Origin: a virus
Lineage: Duplodnaviria; Heunggongvirae; Uroviricota; Caudoviricetes
DNA length: 8,362 bases
IMG/VR virus record: IMGVR_UViG_2675903621_000020
Coordinates: 1-8,362 of that record
Strand: one strand, 5' to 3'
Position 1 is the first letter of the stretch. The number at the start of each line of letters is the position of its first letter. Below are positions 1 through 7,394 of the stretch, piece after piece. A program made the position numbers and the translations under genes. The notes under the pieces were generated by a model. That model made no database searches, was not told the origin of the DNA, and saw only the letters and a program-made list of their open reading frames with translations.

Positions 1-61
1 CGATGATCTGGCAGCCTGAGTTCACAGATAAAACACTCTCCAGGAAAACCGGGGCGGTTCA
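1..61 (+). mobile_element. Right terminus of an IS3-family insertion sequence (IS629-like); the element continues beyond the window start
   Basis: Reverse complement of 1-61 begins TGAACCGCCCCGGTTTTCCTGGAGAG, an imperfect inverted copy of the IS left end at 8280 (TGAACCGCCCCGGGAATCCTGGAGAC). Terminal 5'-TG...CA-3' as in IS3-family ends. The yeeJ reading frame is lost exactly at this junction (61/62). Family name is from memory. Confidence 0.7.
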
Positions 62-1449
62 TTATAGCCTTTCAGGGCATATTTGGTTTGTAGCGACGAA
101 ACCAGTGATTTCACTTCTCCTGACTTCCCTGTCACGGGGTCTGTCAGGGTCAGGCGAACCAGTTCTTTTTTGCGATATTCCAGAACGATGTTGTTGTTGC
201 GATCCACCAGATCAAAACGGCTGCCTGCAAGGCTACGCCGTGCATCGACTTCATTCGGGTCAAGCTGTTTCTGCATCGCGCTTCCAGGTTGCCAGGTAAA
301 ATCGACGGCAAAACGGGTGTCATTTTCGCCCTGTTTACCCTAGCGTTGCTCCGCGCTGAAGGTCATCAGCGGGAAGGGGGTATAGTTAAGTCCAGCGGTT
401 ATGGCATGAGGATTACTTTGCCGATCATCTTTATCGAACAGGGCCACTTCATCGCCATAATACTGTTCATAGACCAGTTTACCGCCAAGGTGCGGCCAGG
501 CGGGTAGCCAGCCTTCTGCGCGTACATCCCAGCCATTGGCCGGGCGTGCTTCATAATCGTTGTCCAGTTCAGGTGCGCTGCGCCAGTTGGTCAGTCGCAA
601 ATAGCCGTTACTGCTTAATTTTAGATAGTCGCGCCAGTACTCCGCGCCAATGCCGGCGCGGGAGTGGTAACGGCTAAGATCGTGGTCGAAAAAGAAGTTG
701 ATGCCCGACATCCATGTGGGAGTGAAATGACGCCAACCCAAGCCGTTGTTAATCTGCGTACGCTCGTCAGTACGATGGAGAGTATGCTGACTGAAAAAGA
801 GATTATCAGGCGTTTCATACCACGGATGGAGAAAATCGAACTGGGAGTTCTTCAGGCTAAAATCTTCATCCACGCCCAGCGTGATTCTTGCGGTACCGAA
901 GCGGCTTAACCAGTCTGTCATTGCGCCTGAAGCCTGAGAAGAGGCCCATCCACGCGCCATATTTGCCGCTTGCTCGCTGTTCATATCCTCGGCGAGCAGA
1001 GACCCGATTTGCTGTGAAGTACTGGCTATCTGTTGCTCAAGGTTGCCACTGCTATTACCCGGTGGCGGGGTTAAATTATTTTCACTAACTTGTGCCGGGA
1101 CATCCAGTTCATCACCCTGGCGGACATTATCAAAACCTCGAGCAAACGTACGAAACTGGTTGAGTTTGCGTAACTCAGCCACCGAAATACCGAAACGTTC
1201 GGCAACGCTTTGGGCCGATTCCAGCGCTCCAAGGGTGTAGGGCACCGTATTGGCATTTGCAATGGCAATTTGTGTAGGAACTGGTTGTTGGGTTGCGGCG
1301 TTTACCACACCTTGTGCTGCCGCAGCCATAGGGAACACAAGTTGAGTTATCAGGCAGATACCCGCAGTTAAGCGGCGTAGTTTAATTCCCATCCCGCATA
1401 AGATTTGTCGGTCATTTATTTCTTCTCCACTTCTCTTCTTCGTAGCCAT
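62..1449 (-). pseudogene. yeeJ: 5' portion of an intimin/invasin-family inverse-autotransporter adhesin gene (yeeJ-like), interrupted by an in-frame TAG and truncated by the IS
   Basis: Minus-strand ORF 340-1524 in the track. ATG at 1449 has a GGAAGG Shine-Dalgarno 5 nt upstream (alternative ATG at 1476). Long signal-peptide-like N-terminus (…LTAGICLITQLVFPMAAAAQG), LysM-like segment (FGISVAELRKLNQF), then a Trp/Tyr/Gly-rich beta-barrel-like region. An in-frame TAG (plus-strand cta at 340-342) stops the frame, which resumes in the same frame to the IS junction at 61/62. Synteny with tRNA-Asn and mtfA matches my memory of E. coli K-12. Confidence 0.7.
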
Positions 1450-1646
1450 GCTTACCTTCCCTGAACGAGCTAACATAAATGCGCCCTTTCTAGCACAGCG
1501 AAAAAATGTAAATCCTGATAGCAATATGATTGAAAATTAATAACTTTTCGTTAGGCAGTTTTGGATGTGAGTTGCAAGAGGGGAGACTACTGAATAACTC
1601 AAGTTTTATAATCGAGGGGAAAATGGTGATGGCGTTCATAGCAAAA

Positions 1647-1673
1647 CGCCCTCAACCATAAAGGTCGAGGGCG
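1647..1673 (-). terminator. Candidate hairpin downstream of tRNA-Asn (possible asnT terminator)
   Basis: 7-bp inverted repeat CGCCCTC/GAGGGCG with a 13-nt loop. On the minus strand it is followed by TTTTG. A second hairpin GGCGTT-N8-AACGCC sits at 1631-1650. The loop is large and the T-run short, so confidence is low. Confidence 0.3.
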
Positions 1674-1762
1674 CTTAAGATGTTAAAAACCCGCTATCCG
1701 TTAAAAAACAATGTTCAACTAAGGTCAGTGACATTGCGCTAAAAAAGCGAATTTTTAGAATT

Positions 1763-1838
1763 TGGCTCCTCTGACTGGACTCGAACCAGTGACATACGGA
1801 TTAACAGTCCGCCGTTCTACCGACTGAACTACAGAGGA
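1763..1838 (-). tRNA. asnT: tRNA-Asn (anticodon GUU), 76 nt with encoded CCA
   Basis: Reverse complement reads TCCTCTGTAGTTCAGTCGGTAGAACGGCGGACTGTTAATCCGTATGTCACTGGTTCGAGTCCAGTCAGAGGAGCCA. 7-bp acceptor stem, anticodon loop CT-GTT-AA, T-loop GGTTCGAGTCC. The asnT name is assigned from position between mtfA and yeeJ. Confidence 0.93.
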
Positions 1839-1856
1839 ATCGTGTGAACGGGGCGC

Positions 1857-1885
1857 ATATTACTTAGCGGTACCTTGTCTGTCAA
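1857..1885 (-). promoter_or_regulatory. Sigma70 promoter for tRNA-Asn
   Basis: Minus strand reads TTGACA (1885-1880), a 17-nt spacer, TAATAT (1862-1857), then the GC-rich discriminator GCGCCCC. This sits about 19 nt upstream of the mature tRNA 5' end. AT-rich sequence lies further upstream, including a GTTAATTAAT direct repeat at 1914-1923 and 1934-1943. Confidence 0.55.
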
Positions 1886-1938
1886 CACTAAATTTCATAA
1901 GTCATTTCAATTGGTTAATTAATCTGCAAAGTTGTTAA

Positions 1939-2736
1939 TTAATGAACATTCGTCGCCGAAAACGAGTCTGTATCATTAGCGTGATGCAGTCTCTGCAAAG
2001 GATCTTGTTGATAAAATTGGCAGAAACGTTGCCACAATGAAGGGAAACGAGGAGCAAAAAGTTCTGGGGCGCTAAAGAAATATTCAGAAAGTACGGCAAA
2101 ACATTCAGCAGGATCACTGGCAGCATAAGCATCAATGCTCGCCGCATTCTCGCCAACCAATTCGATTTCTTCCTGAATGTTGTTCATTGCAGCATGAAGA
2201 TCGTGTTCCCAGCCAGCAACCTCACGCAACGGAATAAAGGGAACTCCGCTGGCGCGATCGCCGTTACGGGTGTCCAGCTTATGAGCGACTTCATGAATAA
2301 TCAGGTTAAAACCAGAAGCATCAAAAGAATCTTGTATATCCAACCAGTTCAAAACGATAGGCCCTTGCTGCCAGCTCTGACCTGACTGAACAATACGTTG
2401 GTTATGCACCAGACCGATATCGTCTTCCCATTCATCATCGACCACAAATGGCGCAGGATAAATTAAGACTTCATGAAAACCATCCAGCCATTCCAGTCCT
2501 AACTCCAGAACGGGTAGGCAAAATAGAAGTGCTATCCGGCAGCTTCTTAATGAATCCAGTTCAAAGCCCTGTAAAGGAACAAGCCGCTTTTGCTGTAAAA
2601 AACGTTCGGCAAGAGTGACTAATTTGCTTTGTTCCTGTTCCGTCAGACACGTTAAAAGGGGGATCGATAGTGCTTCCTGCCAGGGAAGGGCAGTTTGATG
2701 TGCTGATTCTTGTACTTTCCAGGGCCACTTAATCAT
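1939..2736 (-). CDS. mtfA: MtfA (Mlc titration factor A), zinc-metallopeptidase fold, 265 aa
   Basis: ORF with ATG at 2736 (the track ORF extends to a GTG at 2775). Protein begins [28 protein letters not shown] and contains the HExxH motif ([10 protein letters not shown]). Stop TAA at 1939-1941. Recognised from memory as MtfA/YeeI. Confidence 0.9.
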
Positions 2737-2829
2737 CGTTTTGCTCGCAAACTCGTCACTTGAACAAAATTGCACGGACAGGGACTGTTAAAATGCCAAA
2801 TTTCCTGGCATCATGGCAACCATCTGAAC

Positions 2830-2919
2830 GGAGAGATGCCGGAGCGGCTGAACGGACCGGTCTCGAAAACCGGAGTGGGGGCAACTCCACCGGGGGTTCA
2901 AATCCCCCTCTCTCCGCCA
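2830..2919 (+). tRNA. serU: tRNA-Ser (anticodon CGA), 90 nt with long variable arm and encoded CCA
   Basis: GGAGAGATGCCGGAGCGGCTGAACGGACCGGTCTCGAAAACCGGAGTGGGGGCAACTCCACCGGGGGTTCAAATCCCCCTCTCTCCGCCA. 7-bp acceptor stem GGAGAGA/TCTCTCC, anticodon loop CT-CGA-AA, T-loop GGTTCAAATCC. The serU name is assigned from anticodon and position beside mtfA. Confidence 0.9.
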
Positions 2920-2998
2920 AAATTCAATCACTTACACGCCATCAAGTCAGTGATAAAAATCACACTTGGAATTACTTGGAATATTTTGTTGGAATATT
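2920..2998. other. Candidate prophage attL arm between the tRNA-Ser 3' end and the int 3' end
   Basis: The integrase reads toward the tRNA 3' end, the standard tRNA-integrated prophage layout. Three direct repeats (C/G)TTGGAAT(A/T)T at 2965-2972, 2975-2982 and 2989-2995 lie where lambda P' arm-type Int sites would be. An ATCACT-N16-AGTGAT inverted repeat (2926-2953) with an IHF-like ATCAA element lies between them and the tRNA. The core cannot be delimited without attR or an empty site. Confidence 0.4.
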
Positions 2999-3997
2999 CT
3001 GGGGTAAAGGTACATCCAGTGTAGGTGAGATCTTCACTTTCCTGTCATAGATTAATACCTGTCCTTCGGTCTTGTGACCAGAGAAAAGTTGTTTATCCCG
3101 GCTACTACCTTCGTAATCTGATATCCCCTTGGCTTTAAGGTCATGGAACGTAAAATCGGTGGCGATCCCAGATATCTGTCCTGCTAAATTTCTTGCCTCA
3201 ACCCACATTTCATTAAATCCTTTATACATGTAACGGTTGCCGTACTGATTGCTGATTACATAGGCCGACTTGGGGAGTTGTTTGGCTTTTTCTATAACTG
3301 ATTGCAGGCGGGGGCTCCAGGCTTTTATCTGTTTCTTTCCTGTTTTACCTTGCTGGATAAAGATCCCATCGTTTCCGATCTGTTCCCATTTCAGAGATAA
3401 CACATCGGAAATCCTTGCTGCGCACAGATATGCAATTTCCATCGCGATAAAAACAGGCACAGGAGCCACGCTTAATACGGCCTGGTATTCTTTGTCAGTC
3501 ACATAGCGCTCTCGGTTTTTTGCCTTGAATTTACTTACACCGGCACAAGGATTAGCCTTTACATACCCTCGTTCATACCCCCAACTATAAACGCGCGACA
3601 TACTGCTTTTTTCATGGTTTGCCTGCGTTTTACTCTGCTCGCCTCTTTTGTCCATGTATCGTCTGATGTGCTCTGGTTTTACAGAATCGGCCAGCACCTT
3701 ACCGAATACGGCCAGCAACTTTTTTTGATGTTGCAGATAATCTTTTTGAGTTCTAGGACTAAGCTCGCTGTAATAGGCGCTGGCGAGAAATTTTTCCCAC
3801 AAACGCCCAAATGTCATTGCGCGATCGCGATGGTTAACCGTTTCTTCATACTTTTTCCATAATGCGGCTAAACCATCCTCGATTGCAGTTAAGGTTACAG
3901 ATTCTCTGGATGTCGGTTTCCATACATAACTATATTTATTGGGGTATACCTTTGGCGGTAATTTTTCGTGTTCGGGATTTTTCCTTCGTCTTCCCAT
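2972..3997 (-). CDS. int: Lambda-family tyrosine integrase, 341 aa
   Basis: ORF with ATG at 3997 and TAA at 2972-2974. N-terminus MGRRRKNPEHEKLPPKVYPNKYSYVWKP resembles the lambda Int arm-binding N-terminus (MGRRRSHERRDLPPNLY…, from memory). C-terminal catalytic region has HDLK and GHK…Y elements (FTFHDLKAKG…LFSGHKTEGQVLIYDR). Confidence 0.92.
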   Translation of the reverse strand: MGRRRKNPEHEKLPPKVYPNKYSYVWKPTSRESVTLTAIEDGLAALWKKYEETVNHRDRAMTFGRLWEKFLASAYYSELSPRTQKDYLQHQKKLLAVFGKVLADSVKPEHIRRYMDKRGEQSKTQANHEKSSMSRVYSWGYERGYVKANPCAGVSKFKAKNRERYVTDKEYQAVLSVAPVPVFIAMEIAYLCAARISDVLSLKWEQIGNDGIFIQQGKTGKKQIKAWSPRLQSVIEKAKQLPKSAYVISNQYGNRYMYKGFNEMWVEARNLAGQISGIATDFTFHDLKAKGISDYEGSSRDKQLFSGHKTEGQVLIYDRKVKISPTLDVPLPQNIPTKYSK

Positions 3998-4200
3998 TAG
4001 ATCGCACCGAAATCAGGTTCAGCCTCACGTGGTGGTAAAGTTTTTATACAGGTAAACAGTTCCCGACTGACGATCGGTTTTCCACTACGATTGGTATAGA
4101 ACGGAAGCCCATTTTTTATTAACCAGTTGCGCTGGTGGCTTGCATATTTGCAGCCCGTTAACGTTTGCAATTCATTTTCGGTTAAAAATATGCTGCTCAT
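3997..4200 (-). CDS. xis: Excisionase (Xis-like), 67 aa
   Basis: ATG at 4200. Stop TAA (3999-3997) overlaps the int ATG (3997-3995) as TAATG, indicating translational coupling. Small basic protein with a Trp-containing motif (…QRNWLIKNGLPFY…) loosely alignable to lambda Xis. Directly upstream of int. Confidence 0.7.
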   Translation of the reverse strand: MSSIFLTENELQTLTGCKYASHQRNWLIKNGLPFYTNRSGKPIVSRELFTCIKTLPPREAEPDFGAI

Positions 4201-4216
4201 AGCTATATCTCACAAC

Positions 4217-4244
4217 CGCCGCTAACTATATGCCGTTAGCGGCG
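4217..4244 (-). other. GC-rich stem-loop in the 58-nt gap between the exonuclease-domain gene and xis
   Basis: Perfect 10-bp inverted repeat CGCCGCTAAC (4217-4226) / GTTAGCGGCG (4235-4244) with an 8-nt loop. It lies 16 nt upstream of the xis ATG and is not followed by a U-run on the transcribed strand. Confidence 0.45.
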
Positions 4245-4258
4245 ATCCGGGTTGAACA

Positions 4259-6676
4259 TTAAAAATCAGCCTGACTCGGGATCAGTTTTTGCCAGATGGC
4301 TGAAACGTATTTTGCCTGGTAACGCGCATCGTGCAGGGCGTTATGGCGTTCACCTTCGAATGGAATAGTCGTTCTTGCGTCGAAATCCATCACCAGTCCC
4401 AGAGCAACCATCGTTCTTACATCGCGATCATTGGTGTAACGCCACGGGCAGGGGATCCCCTGCCGTTCATATGAACGGCGTAAAATCACGTTGTCGAAAG
4501 TTGCACCGTTACCCCAGACCTGAACAAAAAATTCACCGGAGTTTTCGTCGATAAATTCCCGTAATTGCAGCAGTGCATCATCCAACGGGATTTCATCGGT
4601 CAGAATGGAGGATTGTGCTTCGCGTGACTGTTTCAGCCACCACTTAATGGTGTCCCGATCGATGACCCCGCCTGCGGTTTCCAGATCGATAGTTTTGCTG
4701 AATTCTGGCCCCATATCTCCGGTTGCCGGATCAAAAAACTTACCGGCTATAGCGTTTATTGGCGCATCAGGATTTTTTCCCATTGCTTCAAGGTCAATCA
4801 TCAGATGGTGCCACAACCTGCTGGTGGATGAGATTTCATGATGACCGTTCACTTTAATTAAGGGATTTGCTGTTTCGCCAGTTTTATTATCGCTGGCGTG
4901 ATACTGATCGCTGCCAGTGTTCTCCTTGTGCAGATGTTCAGTGCCTTCCATTTCCTCCGGATCATTTTTCTGAGCTTCAGCCTGATTCTCTTCATCGAAT
5001 GTTTCCTGGTAGGTTGCGTTCCCCATCACCGCACTACAGTCAGGACAGTTGCCGCCACCGGTCTGACCACATGTGGTGCAAACTTTTTCTGGTTCTTGTT
5101 GCACTACTGGTTCTGGTTGTTTTGTTTTTGGCTCGTTTTGTAACGCATTTGGGCTGTTTTGTTCCGCTTTATCCTGATTCTGGTCATCATCATCGCGACT
5201 CTGGATCCCCTTCACCCATTTTGGATCATTCGGGTCGCTAATCCCTTCAACAAATTCTCCGCGAGAAGCAGCCAGTAATTTATCTGCATCGACAGGATTT
5301 TTGGGTGGAATGTTTTTCTTGGCTTCATGGAGTTCTGCACGCAGTTTCTGATATTTCGCATCAACAGAATTTATCTGTGGCTGAGCATCCATCGACTGCG
5401 TGTCCTGATTATGTTCAGTTGTATCCGGTTCCACTGCTTCAGTCGTTGCCTGTTCATCTGCCATTGCGCCAGATGGCTGCGGTTTTTCTTCATCATCCTG
5501 TTTTCCTTCTTTTGTTACACGCTGCGGCATCGGGGCAGAGGAGCGGCCACAGGCAATATCCACGATTTCCGGATCAGGGGTGGCATGATCGGTTTCAGTC
5601 AGCACCTTATTCAGGTATTCGGTGACACGGTGGGGAGTAGCCTCTATACCAATTGGTGCTTCTTTCACGGACGCAACCACGATGGCGCGGGAGTAATCCT
5701 TGTGGCCCGGCATGGTGATGAATTTGCTGAAAAACACAGTAAATGGCGGTTTATTTTCAGCGATAATTTCCTCAATGCGTTTAGCGTGTGCGGGATGAAG
5801 GTTATAAATATCCACGTCCATTGAACGGGCCAGTACGCCAGTGGCTACGTCACGCGCCACTGACGCATCATCGTGGACAAAACCTTCGCCGCGATCGGTA
5901 AGAATGCCGCCGCCAGCGTTAGCGCCGGATGGCGTGCGGCTGATGCGTGAAACACTATTTCCTTTCATCCACTCTTTTGTAAGCAGACCGCGATCGGTGT
6001 AGTCAGCGCCCAGGTATGCTTCGATAAAAGAGGTCATCAGTCCCAGGTCCGAATTTACGGGGGCGGGGAAAACTTTGTCAGTGTCTCGCACCAGTTTGTA
6101 CAAATCCCGAATCTCCAGCGGTTCGAGTTGCACTGCTTTATTTGAGATGGCCAGCGCGGTAACGGCGGGAAGTTTTTCATCCTGTGCGTTATGTAATGCG
6201 CGCAGTTTGTCCAGTGAAACGTGCGTGACCGGTTTTTCGCTGTTGTGTTGCGCCAGCCAGCGAACAGGCAGAATCTGACCTGAAACCGGAAGAAGCATAT
6301 TCTCCTCAATCTTAGCCATGTCTTCGCCGTTGACGTTGGTATTGTCAGTACTGGCTGGTTTGTCCGGAACAGAGGGCGCGATAAGTATCATTGTGATACC
6401 ATCTTCTCCGCCTTTTTCGTATCGGTTGCAGAATTCAGTATCAAACACACCTTCCGGTGGAAGGTCATTCACAACGGGTAAATGGACGCGGATGGGTTTT
6501 TTAAAATCCTCTTCGTCAAATCCGGCATCGTCCATTGCAGCAACACCGCGTGATATTGCAACCGATAATTTTTTTGCTGTGCGCCAGTAAAAACCACCTT
6601 TAATCCCAAGGCGTTTTCTGACTTTGTCATTTTTGGCTTCGTAATATAGTGCAATTTCTTCTTTATCAGCGTTCAT
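4259..6676 (-). CDS. 805-aa multidomain prophage protein: N-terminal domain of unknown function, acidic disordered linker with a CxxC-x7-CxxC knuckle, C-terminal DEDDh (DnaQ-like) 3'-5' exonuclease domain
   Basis: ATG at 6676 with a GAGG Shine-Dalgarno 7 nt upstream; TAA at 4259-4261. The C-terminal ~185 aa carry motifs in canonical order: Exo I DxE (MIDLE, res. 628-630, or TIDLETAGG, 664-666), Exo II ([13 protein letters not shown]728), Exo III H-x4-D (HNALHD, H778/D783). Residues ~385-620 are D/E/Q/P/K-rich low complexity containing C533-x2-C536-x7-C544-x2-C547. Confidence 0.85.
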
Positions 6677-6768
6677 TGATAAACCTCATAACCATTTTAA
6701 GGATGAACAAATTCCTGCCATTGCTGGTATTTTTAATCCGTTGGTATGGCGTTAATATGGCTGGAGGG

Positions 6769-6957
6769 TTATCCAGCCGGTATTTCGTTATTCAGGTTCA
6801 GCGACACTTTTTTTAACGGGAGGCATTCACCGGGGATTTTTTGTTCGTCCCTTACCTGAATGCAGGATGACTTACTGTCATAAATTCCGGTAATTACATT
6901 CTGCGGCTCACCCGTTATAAGAAAAACGGTCATCACCAGTGCAAATGCTGAGGTCAC
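6769..6957 (-). CDS. Small hypothetical protein (62 aa) with a hydrophobic N-terminus, coupled to the upstream small ORF
   Basis: GTG start at 6957 overlaps the upstream stop as GTGA. GGAG Shine-Dalgarno 5 nt upstream. N-terminus MTSAFALVMTVFLITG is signal/TM-like; two Cys. Stop TAA at 6769-6771. A 54-aa variant would start at ATG 6933. I recognise no homolog. Confidence 0.4.
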   Translation of the reverse strand: MTSAFALVMTVFLITGEPQNVITGIYDSKSSCIQVRDEQKIPGECLPLKKVSLNLNNEIPAG

Positions 6958-7142
6958 TGCTGTTCTCCGAAAATACCAAGTTCAAGAAGAGCAATTCGGG
7001 AAAGTATGGAATTATCATTGAGCAGATAAGGCTCATATTTCCGCATATTAATGGCATCCTCAGTAAACGCTTTATTACTGAGCAGAACACCAATATCAAA
7101 ACAACCTTCAGACGTATTAACGTTTGGTAATAACGTTTCCAT
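6954..7142 (-). CDS. Small hypothetical protein (62 aa), first gene of the leftward operon
   Basis: ATG at 7142 with a strong Shine-Dalgarno GAGGA 7 nt upstream (minus strand …TTGAGGACGCGATA-ATG). Protein METLLPNVNTSEGCFDIGVLLSNKAFTEDAINMRKYEPYLLNDNSILSRIALLELGIFGEQQ. Stop TGA at 6954-6956. The track ORF extends upstream to a GTG at 7247 with no ribosome-binding site. Confidence 0.5.
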   Translation of the reverse strand: METLLPNVNTSEGCFDIGVLLSNKAFTEDAINMRKYEPYLLNDNSILSRIALLELGIFGEQQ

Positions 7143-7159
7143 TATCGCGTCCTCAACAA

Positions 7160-7307
7160 TGAATTTTGTGATGCAGTGCCTGGTGCCTCCAGGTGACGTT
7201 AACCAGTTAACAATTAACGCCGGATACAGAGAATCCACCCATAACACTGTTTTTGGTTTTAACTGTTCCGCGTGCGCTTAGCCGCATTCACCGCATCACA
7301 AAATTCA
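7160..7307. repeat. Perfect 15-bp inverted repeat pair flanking a 118-bp segment next to the leftward operon start
   Basis: TGAATTTTGTGATGC at 7160-7174 and its reverse complement GCATCACAAAATTCA at 7293-7307 (17 of 18 with one flanking base each side). The left arm abuts the Shine-Dalgarno of ORF 6954-7142. The enclosed segment contains GTTAAC-ca-GTTAAC-aa-TTAAC (7198-7218). Confidence 0.6.
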
Positions 7308-7394
7308 CTTTAAAAAGGGCGGCAGAGCAGTCACGGAGTAAAACTGATACCGCCAAATGTCACCAGAAAATTGATAACAGAGGGCGTTGTAGCG

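Follow-up and report, generated by a model that had tools for sequence, protein, structure and literature searches.

An amber mutation probably followed by an IS629-type insertion in the yeeJ adhesin gene of O55:H7-type Escherichia coli

Overview

We analyzed a stretch of 8,362 nucleotides (hereafter, the window) that begins within an insertion sequence and continues into the 5′ part of yeeJ, an inverse autotransporter adhesin gene. This yeeJ copy, from an O55:H7-type E. coli, was very probably knocked out twice in succession, by an amber mutation and then by insertion of an IS629-type element. The window is the complete draft contig CYGQ01000060.1 (8,362 bp; short-read assembly GCA_001286625.1), and its positions 62 to 8279 are 100% identical to O55:H7 complete genomes. 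The features on which the analysis turns are as follows.

Positions 1..61, plus strand: right inverted-repeat end (last 61 nt) of an IS629-type element of the IS3 family, in the opposite orientation to yeeJ; the contig stops inside it
Positions 62..64, minus strand: TAA when read along the gene (yeeJ nt 1386-1388), the probable left copy of a target-site duplication of 3 bp
Positions 62..1449, minus strand: 5′ part of yeeJ (first 1388 nt, codons 1-462 plus 2 nt)
Positions 340..342, minus strand (read 342-340): amber TAG at codon 370 (gene nt 1108-1110), ancestrally CAG (Gln)
Positions 343..1449, minus strand: what is left of the open reading frame, encoding 369 aa of the N-terminus and missing the barrel end, the linker through the pore and all of the passenger
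Positions 1763..1838, minus strand: asnT, tRNA-Asn(GTT), found with ARAGORN; conserved upstream neighbour of yeeJ and synteny marker
Positions 8280..8362, plus strand: left inverted-repeat end (first 83 nt) of another IS629-type copy, oriented like the first and lying between prophage genes at the other contig end

Identity of the gene

The yeeJ start codon is an ATG at 1449-1447 on the minus strand, with a good ribosome-binding site upstream. From there, the frame reads MATKKRSGEEINDRQ (MATKKRSGEE...)...TFSAEQR, a stop, and then GKQGENDTRFAVDFTWQPGSAMQKQ...KYALKGY, so that a single stop is its lone interruption. A Pfam search with the 462-residue translation, in which Gln was put back at position 370, matched residues 144-419 to IAT_beta (PF11924) over profile positions 2-279 of 279 (E = 2.8e-113). 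Residues 182-426 also align end to end with the β-barrels of invasin (4E1T, E = 6.6e-80) and intimin (4E1S, E = 3.8e-69). Searched against Pfam, the N-terminal part of yeeJ gave no LysM match at E <= 0.001; in other genomes the N-terminal yeeJ fragment carries the PGAP label 'LysM domain-containing protein', and a LysM domain has been described for YeeJ (PMC6714894). We read the 1388-nt segment as encoding a signal peptide, a putative LysM region and the inverse-autotransporter β-barrel. The passenger of YeeJ falls outside the window. Where it can be read, in the O55:H7 allele that lacks the IS and in identical proteins, it contains Big_1 (PF02369) and Invasin_D3 (PF09134) repeats according to Pfam.

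The order mtfA-asnT-yeeJ is identical in E. coli K-12 MG1655, O157:H7 and O55:H7, and mtfA lies beyond the tRNA-Asn gene in the window as well. Over the 1388 nt of yeeJ, we counted 20 mismatches to K-12 (98.6% identity), 2 to each of O157:H7 FRIK944 and WS4202, and none to O55:H7 USDA5905. The IAT_beta and barrel matches, the K-12-like gene order and the 98.6% identity to K-12 therefore identify the gene as a yeeJ orthologue, as the initial annotation had supposed in calling it a yeeJ-like adhesin gene, and as the long 2,660-aa form, which bears the PGAP name 'inverse autotransporter adhesin-like protein YeeJ'.

A characterized relative is yeeJ of K-12 (b1978), an inverse autotransporter adhesin with a role in biofilms (Martinez-Gil et al. 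2017, PMC5595812), which shares with the window copy its locus, 98.6% of its sequence over the 1388 nt and an N-terminal architecture of IAT_beta and, putatively, LysM. The K-12 gene is intact, has CAG at codon 370 and measures 7,077 bp, whereas O55:H7 and O157:H7 carry the 2,660-aa 'YeeJ-like' variant and the copy in the window is broken by both the amber and the IS. Expression of yeeJ is derepressed in a pnp or hns background. Much closer is the yeeJ pseudogene of complete O55:H7 genomes such as USDA5905, which is identical over 62-1449 including the TAG and is accompanied by the same prophage, serU, mtfA and asnT. Unlike the window, the complete O55:H7 genomes have no IS in yeeJ or at the prophage site, and their yeeJ has no further interruption up to codon 2,660.

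The amber codon

Alignment to orthologues gave CAG at codon 370 in K-12, FRIK944 and WS4202, making CAG the ancestral codon. The initial annotation had placed an in-frame amber at 340-342 and traced it to a single-base change from CAG or TGG; the position is exact (TAG at 342-340, codon 370), and CAG is the source. We next took a census of both alleles with a 41-mer centred on codon 370, for which a central mismatch gives no match under the 28-base word of megablast. The TAG 41-mer was present in 9 of 5,426 complete E. coli genomes (USDA5905, RM12579, CB9615, DEC5A, DEC5D, DEC5E, TB182A, 2013C-4465 and FDAARGOS_946), all of the O55:H7 group, and the CAG 41-mer in 2,500 of the same genomes. Outside the O55:H7 group, no exact match to the TAG 41-mer was found among the 5,426 complete genomes, and the stop is thus not a feature shared by intact orthologues. 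The nine carriers fall in the O55:H7 group of Weinroth and Bono (PMC9413875). TAG also occurs in two other draft assemblies, and the exact 369-aa product is annotated in both O55:H7 drafts.

In the IS-free O55:H7 allele, 2,290 further open codons follow the TAG, which is the sole internal stop in 2,660 codons and is accompanied by no frameshift. Such a length of open frame argues that this is a true gene and excludes a chance open reading frame, and the single defect in 2,660 codons suggests that the inactivation of yeeJ in O55:H7 is evolutionarily recent. Since the identical 41-mer recurs in nine independently assembled complete genomes, we regard the TAG as a real mutation, fixed in the clone that makes up the O55:H7 group. 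That it might instead be a sequencing or assembly error, with the gene intact up to the IS, is hardly credible. Some apparent yeeJ frameshifts may indeed be assembly artefacts, according to Martinez-Gil et al. (PMC5595812), and the window comes from a short-read draft, where support for the TAG in the source isolate consists of identity with other assemblies. Those assemblies, however, include the nine complete genomes, produced by several laboratories on several sequencing platforms, along with the two further drafts, and a single base was substituted outside any repeat, which rules out a homopolymer indel. Phase variation was considered and rejected for a like reason, the change being a substitution in a place with no repeat tract.

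Comparison of the two 41-mers shows that the ancestral context CGC-CAG-GGT holds a Dcm site, CCAGG, and that the mutated base is its inner C, giving CTAGG. Deamination of 5-methylcytosine classically turns CCAGG into CTAGG, and amber codons are known to arise in this way. Coulondre and colleagues reportedly observed in 1978 that amber hotspots in lacI lie at Dcm sites and arise by this very change. The yeeJ case is like the lacI hotspots in that the inner C of CCAGG, being the first base of CAG, became T and made TAG; it is unlike them in that the change is natural and clone-fixed, and in that methylation is putative here. Deamination of 5-methylcytosine at the Dcm site is the likely cause of the amber, the deaminated base presumably having evaded very-short-patch repair.

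The stop is already flagged in public annotation: PGAP lists yeeJ of USDA5905 (E3175_RS28540) as a pseudogene with an 'internal stop'. In our literature search, papers on YeeJ, on IS629 and on O55:H7 made no mention of this yeeJ lesion.

Predicted effect on the protein

The amber sits about 50 residues ahead of the end of the barrel domain, which extends to residue 419 in the IAT_beta match and to 426 in the structure alignment. Translation would thus halt inside the 12-stranded barrel, and the predicted 369-aa product lacks the final barrel strand or strands, the conserved stretch after it (...LDPNEVDARRSLAGSRFDLVDRNNNIVLEY) and all of the passenger, an Ig-like/lectin region of about 2,200 aa. 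In the invasin and intimin structures, the region missing from this product closes the barrel and threads the pore. By this homology, the fragment would be unable to insert into the membrane or to display the adhesin; because the stop falls within the β-barrel domain, no functional adhesin is expected, and the mutation is best described as a presumed loss of function.

Read-through of the amber, by a suppressor tRNA or by favourable context, would leave the lesion without inactivating effect, and we consider it extremely improbable. No supporting evidence for it was found, the sole lead being the presence of serU in the window. A mutated serU is the amber suppressor supD. The serU copy in the window has the wild-type CGA anticodon and is therefore not supD. 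Moreover, codon 370 encodes Gln in the 2,500 genomes with CAG, and TAG is found within O55:H7 only. Even with read-through, in the IS-bearing clone the IS would remove the passenger after codon 462.

The IS629-type element and its junction with yeeJ

The boundary between yeeJ and the IS lies at 61/62, immediately after gene nt 1388 and exactly where it had been annotated; it is 277 nt downstream of the amber, at the boundary between barrel and passenger. From position 61, the minus strand (61-1) reads TGAACCGCCCCGGTTTTCCTGGAGAGTG..., an IS629-type terminal inverted repeat. Both IS ends in the window (61-1 on the minus strand and 8280-8362 on the plus strand) open with TGAACCGCCCCGG. An O55:H7 draft (locus L005) has a complete element of 1310 bp whose two ends match them with 100% identity. 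This element carries transposase open reading frames with HTH_Tnp_1 and rve domains and occupies the same prophage site as the second copy in the window. Past the junction, the yeeJ frame continues as ...KGYNEPPRFSWRVFYL and ends at a stop 13 codons into the IS.

Related copies in O157:H7 are annotated by PGAP as 'IS3-like element IS1203 family' transposase with a 'programmed frameshift'. The O55-type element and the one in yeeJ of FRIK944 differ at 56 of 1310 positions, which is consistent with the published divergence between IS629 sub-type II (O55:H7) and sub-type I (the IS1203 form, O157:H7), put at about 4% (>55 bp) by Rump et al. (PMC3271280). IS629 makes target duplications of 3-4 bp (PMC3271280), and 3-bp duplications flank three other yeeJ insertions, those of FRIK944, O103:H2 and ECP19-198. 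For the window, the TAA at 62..64 is a probable duplication seen from one side, since its second copy would be on another contig.

An 84-aa open reading frame (22-276, minus strand) spans the junction, and exact look-up of this fusion returned five contigs from at least two separate assemblies. Because the identical fusion is found on five draft contigs, we take the junction to be genuine and subclone-wide. An IS629-type end abutting yeeJ nt 1388 was absent, in both orientations, from all complete genomes, and the prophage-site IS junction at 8280 was absent from the complete O55:H7 genomes, as would be expected if the junction is specific to a subclone.

Simple insertion or truncation

The initial annotation had described yeeJ as truncated by the IS. 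The IS junction stands, but truncation is more than the sequence shows: the contig merely stops 61 nt into the IS. A contig ending in an IS is evidence of an insertion junction and no proof of truncation, and here the contig ends inside the IS repeat, before reaching the remainder of yeeJ. We consider it likely that the element inserted simply and that the remainder of yeeJ follows it on another contig, in which case a sequence ...GGATTCCCGGGGCGGTTCA (the IS629 left end) followed by TAACGTCGAAGCC... and the rest of yeeJ would be expected. This is the arrangement at three of the four other yeeJ IS insertions examined: each is a simple insertion flanked by a 3-bp duplication, and the gene resumes after it. 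The fourth, in O157:H7 WS4202, has IS1203 at yeeJ nt 2826 and then unrelated genes, and gives a precedent for an IS-mediated deletion or rearrangement, by which the remainder of yeeJ would be gone or moved and the gene truly truncated. Two other IS-associated changes point the same way, namely, in the O55:H7 draft AIFU01000013.1, a 4.75-kb deletion next to the prophage-site IS629 and, in the sister contig CYAH01000084.1, a further change at window position 3183. The downstream yeeJ half, predicted as a 2,226-aa edge open reading frame, was also not found in the collection by exact look-up; this failure is weak evidence, however, since an exact sequence is needed and the position of the contig edge is uncertain. 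On balance, we judge a deletion or rearrangement unlikely.

A chimeric protein query joining the IS peptide to YeeJ returned five irrelevant fragments only. Two candidates for the missing half were rejected. A 2,185-aa open reading frame starting from the first GTG was found, but it equals a 799-bp-deletion allele of O157-type genomes. Contig L013, which starts at yeeJ nt 1388 and encodes a 2,197-aa 'partial' YeeJ from Val464, has 8 differences from USDA5905 over 9 kb, four of them in the O157-type state, and its sister contig L017 has CAG and an O157-type prophage; L013 was assigned to another lineage because of these O157-like sites and the CAG and O157-type prophage of L017.

Order of the two lesions

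The TAG is present in all nine complete O55:H7-group genomes and in IS-free drafts, and the IS junction is confined to a subclone, which places the IS second. In the first step, a C to T change in the ancestor shared by the sequenced O55:H7 strains converted Gln370 from CAG to TAG. In the second, the 1310-bp IS629-type element entered yeeJ of the subclone after nt 1388, opposite to the gene; with the gene already dead, this insertion was probably neutral. The initial annotation had taken the two independent lesions as pointing to decay of the adhesin. Their independence is upheld, but they do not amount to parallel evidence of selection, since they are sequential and the gene was dead before the IS arrived. 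An IS that landed in an already-dead gene makes the second lesion uninformative on selection.

yeeJ lesions in related lineages

Complete yeeJ has been reported in 35% of 126 genomes, with 'a high number of strains' carrying truncated copies (PMC6714894, PMC5595812). In O55:H7, O157:H7 and other related lineages, the lesions are as follows.

Amber at codon 370: O55:H7
IS at about nt 1217: O103:H2 12009; simple insertion, 3-bp duplication
IS at nt 1388: O55:H7-type clone of the window
IS at nt 1431: O157:H7 ECP19-198; simple insertion, 3-bp duplication
IS at about nt 1976: O157:H7 FRIK944; simple insertion, 3-bp duplication
IS at nt 2826: O157:H7 WS4202; downstream part lost
799-bp deletion, nt 559-1357: 17 contigs of O157-type genomes

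The insertions of FRIK944, WS4202, ECP19-198 and O103:H2 12009 resemble that of the window in bringing a 1310-bp IS3-family element of the same family into yeeJ, and in four of the five cases, the window included, the IS is opposite to the gene. They differ in position (about nt 1217, 1431, 1976 and 2826 versus 1388) and in codon 370, which is CAG in these EHEC copies and not TAG.

We regard the window as a case of ordinary pseudogene formation, by a point mutation and then an IS, in an often-broken gene. It is distinctly improbable that loss of YeeJ was selected as a pathoadaptive change in this lineage, with the lesions forming part of a recurrent inactivation. At least seven separate yeeJ lesions in related lineages speak for it, as do O157-type drafts in which yeeJ is broken within 2 nt of the junction in the window. 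These lesions have to be set against the size of the gene, which at about 8 kb is a large mutational target, and against the high activity of IS629, present in 19-25 copies in these genomes (PMC3271280); the second lesion, in an already-dead gene, is silent on selection. In addition, an intact 2,660-aa YeeJ, which over its C-terminal 2,198 residues has the same sequence as the O55:H7 allele, is found on more than 1,000 contigs, largely O157:H7. The comparison that had been drawn with decay in EHEC-type genomes thus holds for particular strains only.

Breaks at the same site in O157-type drafts

Several O157:H7-type drafts, which have CAG at codon 370, Ala59 and a prophage 97.3% identical to that of the window, have yeeJ split near nt 1388; isolates broken at this site include those of GCA_023965495.1 and GCA_012226465.1. 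Their N-terminal contigs end at nt 1381-1386, and within one assembly the matching C-terminal contig opens at nt 1388. Because of trimming at the contig ends, the inserted element falls outside the sequence, and none of the complete genomes shows it. Exact look-ups of nine predicted fusion proteins, made for either orientation, either IS subtype and two start codons, and of a 463-aa edge variant found none of them. According to Rump et al. (PMC3271280), IS629 has no sequence-specific target, which makes a second independent hit at nt 1388 mildly surprising. The O157-type drafts being split within 2 nt of the O55:H7-type junction despite their different background, yeeJ may be a recurrent and possibly selected target of inactivation in O55:H7 and O157:H7, with an IS629 hotspot at nt 1386-1388, and we offer this as a tentative suggestion that is somewhat doubtful. 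Were it true, there would be two independent hits at one site, beside at least five other independent lesions in yeeJ.

Uses of the two lesions as markers

The significance of these observations is small beyond bookkeeping. An O55:H7 group presumably without the YeeJ adhesin, against O157:H7 strains that are mostly intact, amounts to a small difference between progenitor and descendant. The codon-370 amber cleanly marks the sequenced O55:H7 group by a single nucleotide, all nine carriers being O55:H7 and no other genome of the 5,426 having it. Within this group, a subclone is recognizable by its IS629 junction at yeeJ nt 1388, which could aid typing.

IS629 copies flank the yeeJ segment

The window comprises the entire draft contig CYGQ01000060.1, which stops within IS629 on either side. 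Features of the window relevant here are as follows:

1-61: IS629 end piece, in direct orientation with that at 8280-8362
2830-2919: serU, tRNA-Ser(CGA), adjoining the prophage integrase gene
2972-3997: intact tyrosine integrase (341 aa) of the lambdoid prophage
8279/8280: junction of the right-hand IS629, in a prophage intergenic region
8280-8362: IS629 end piece

Since the IS629 copies at the two contig ends point the same way, the 8.2-kb segment between them, which carries the 5' part of yeeJ, asnT, mtfA, serU, and the prophage end, is flanked by direct copies. Recombination between these copies could lead to the loss of the segment. The right-hand IS629 lies 80 nt beyond the stop at 8199, with a DUF1391 gene ~33 nt away, and the O55:H7 draft AIFU01000013.1 contains IS629 at the identical prophage site (6611-7920 of comparison locus L005). 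However, unlike in the window, the element in AIFU01000013.1 adjoins a 4.75-kb deletion of window positions 3531-8279, which leaves the integrase gene incomplete and eliminates both dicB and the exonuclease gene.

Besides the integrase, the lambdoid prophage of the window encodes an 805-aa RecE-like exonuclease, DUF4224, DUF1482, and dicB. In contrast to the intact integrase of the window, its counterpart is frameshifted in O157:H7 FRIK944 and WS4202, whose prophage shares only ~95-97% identity with that of the window.

A sister assembly (L008, CYAH01000084.1, 3342 bp) shares the yeeJ::IS629 junction of the window and carries an additional IS629 right end, inverted, that abuts window position 3183 within the prophage integrase gene. 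This extra end points to an IS that is still moving in the yeeJ::IS629 subclone.

Lesions of yeeJ in related strains

Four further loci (L001, L004, L014, and L020) have IS629/IS1203 insertions in yeeJ that are independent of one another.

IS629/IS1203 insertions in yeeJ (gene nt; strain; remark)
~1976; FRIK944; duplication GAG
2826; WS4202; downstream part replaced
~1217; O103:H2 12009
1431; ECP19-198; duplication GTT

Many O157:H7 strains of the "Z" and Argentine sets share one more such insertion, further into yeeJ. A separate allele, present on 17 contigs, lacks 799 bp within the gene (nt 559-1357) in O157:H7-type genomes (L009-L012, including CP044350.1 and CP058233.1). Two ORFs remain in this allele, an N-terminal one of 201 aa and a downstream one of 2,185 aa.

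In O157:H7-type draft assemblies (contigs L013 and L015-L019), yeeJ is broken at nt 1381-1388, at most 2 nt from the IS junction of the window, and these assemblies carry CAG at codon 370. The element inserted at this split is not visible in the draft contigs and was found in no complete genome. This stretch of yeeJ may represent a local insertion hotspot.

A second difference in yeeJ separates the O55:H7 group from O157:H7 and K-12: gene nt 175 (window 1275) is A in the former and G in the latter, giving Thr59 versus Ala59 at a residue preceding the LysM domain.
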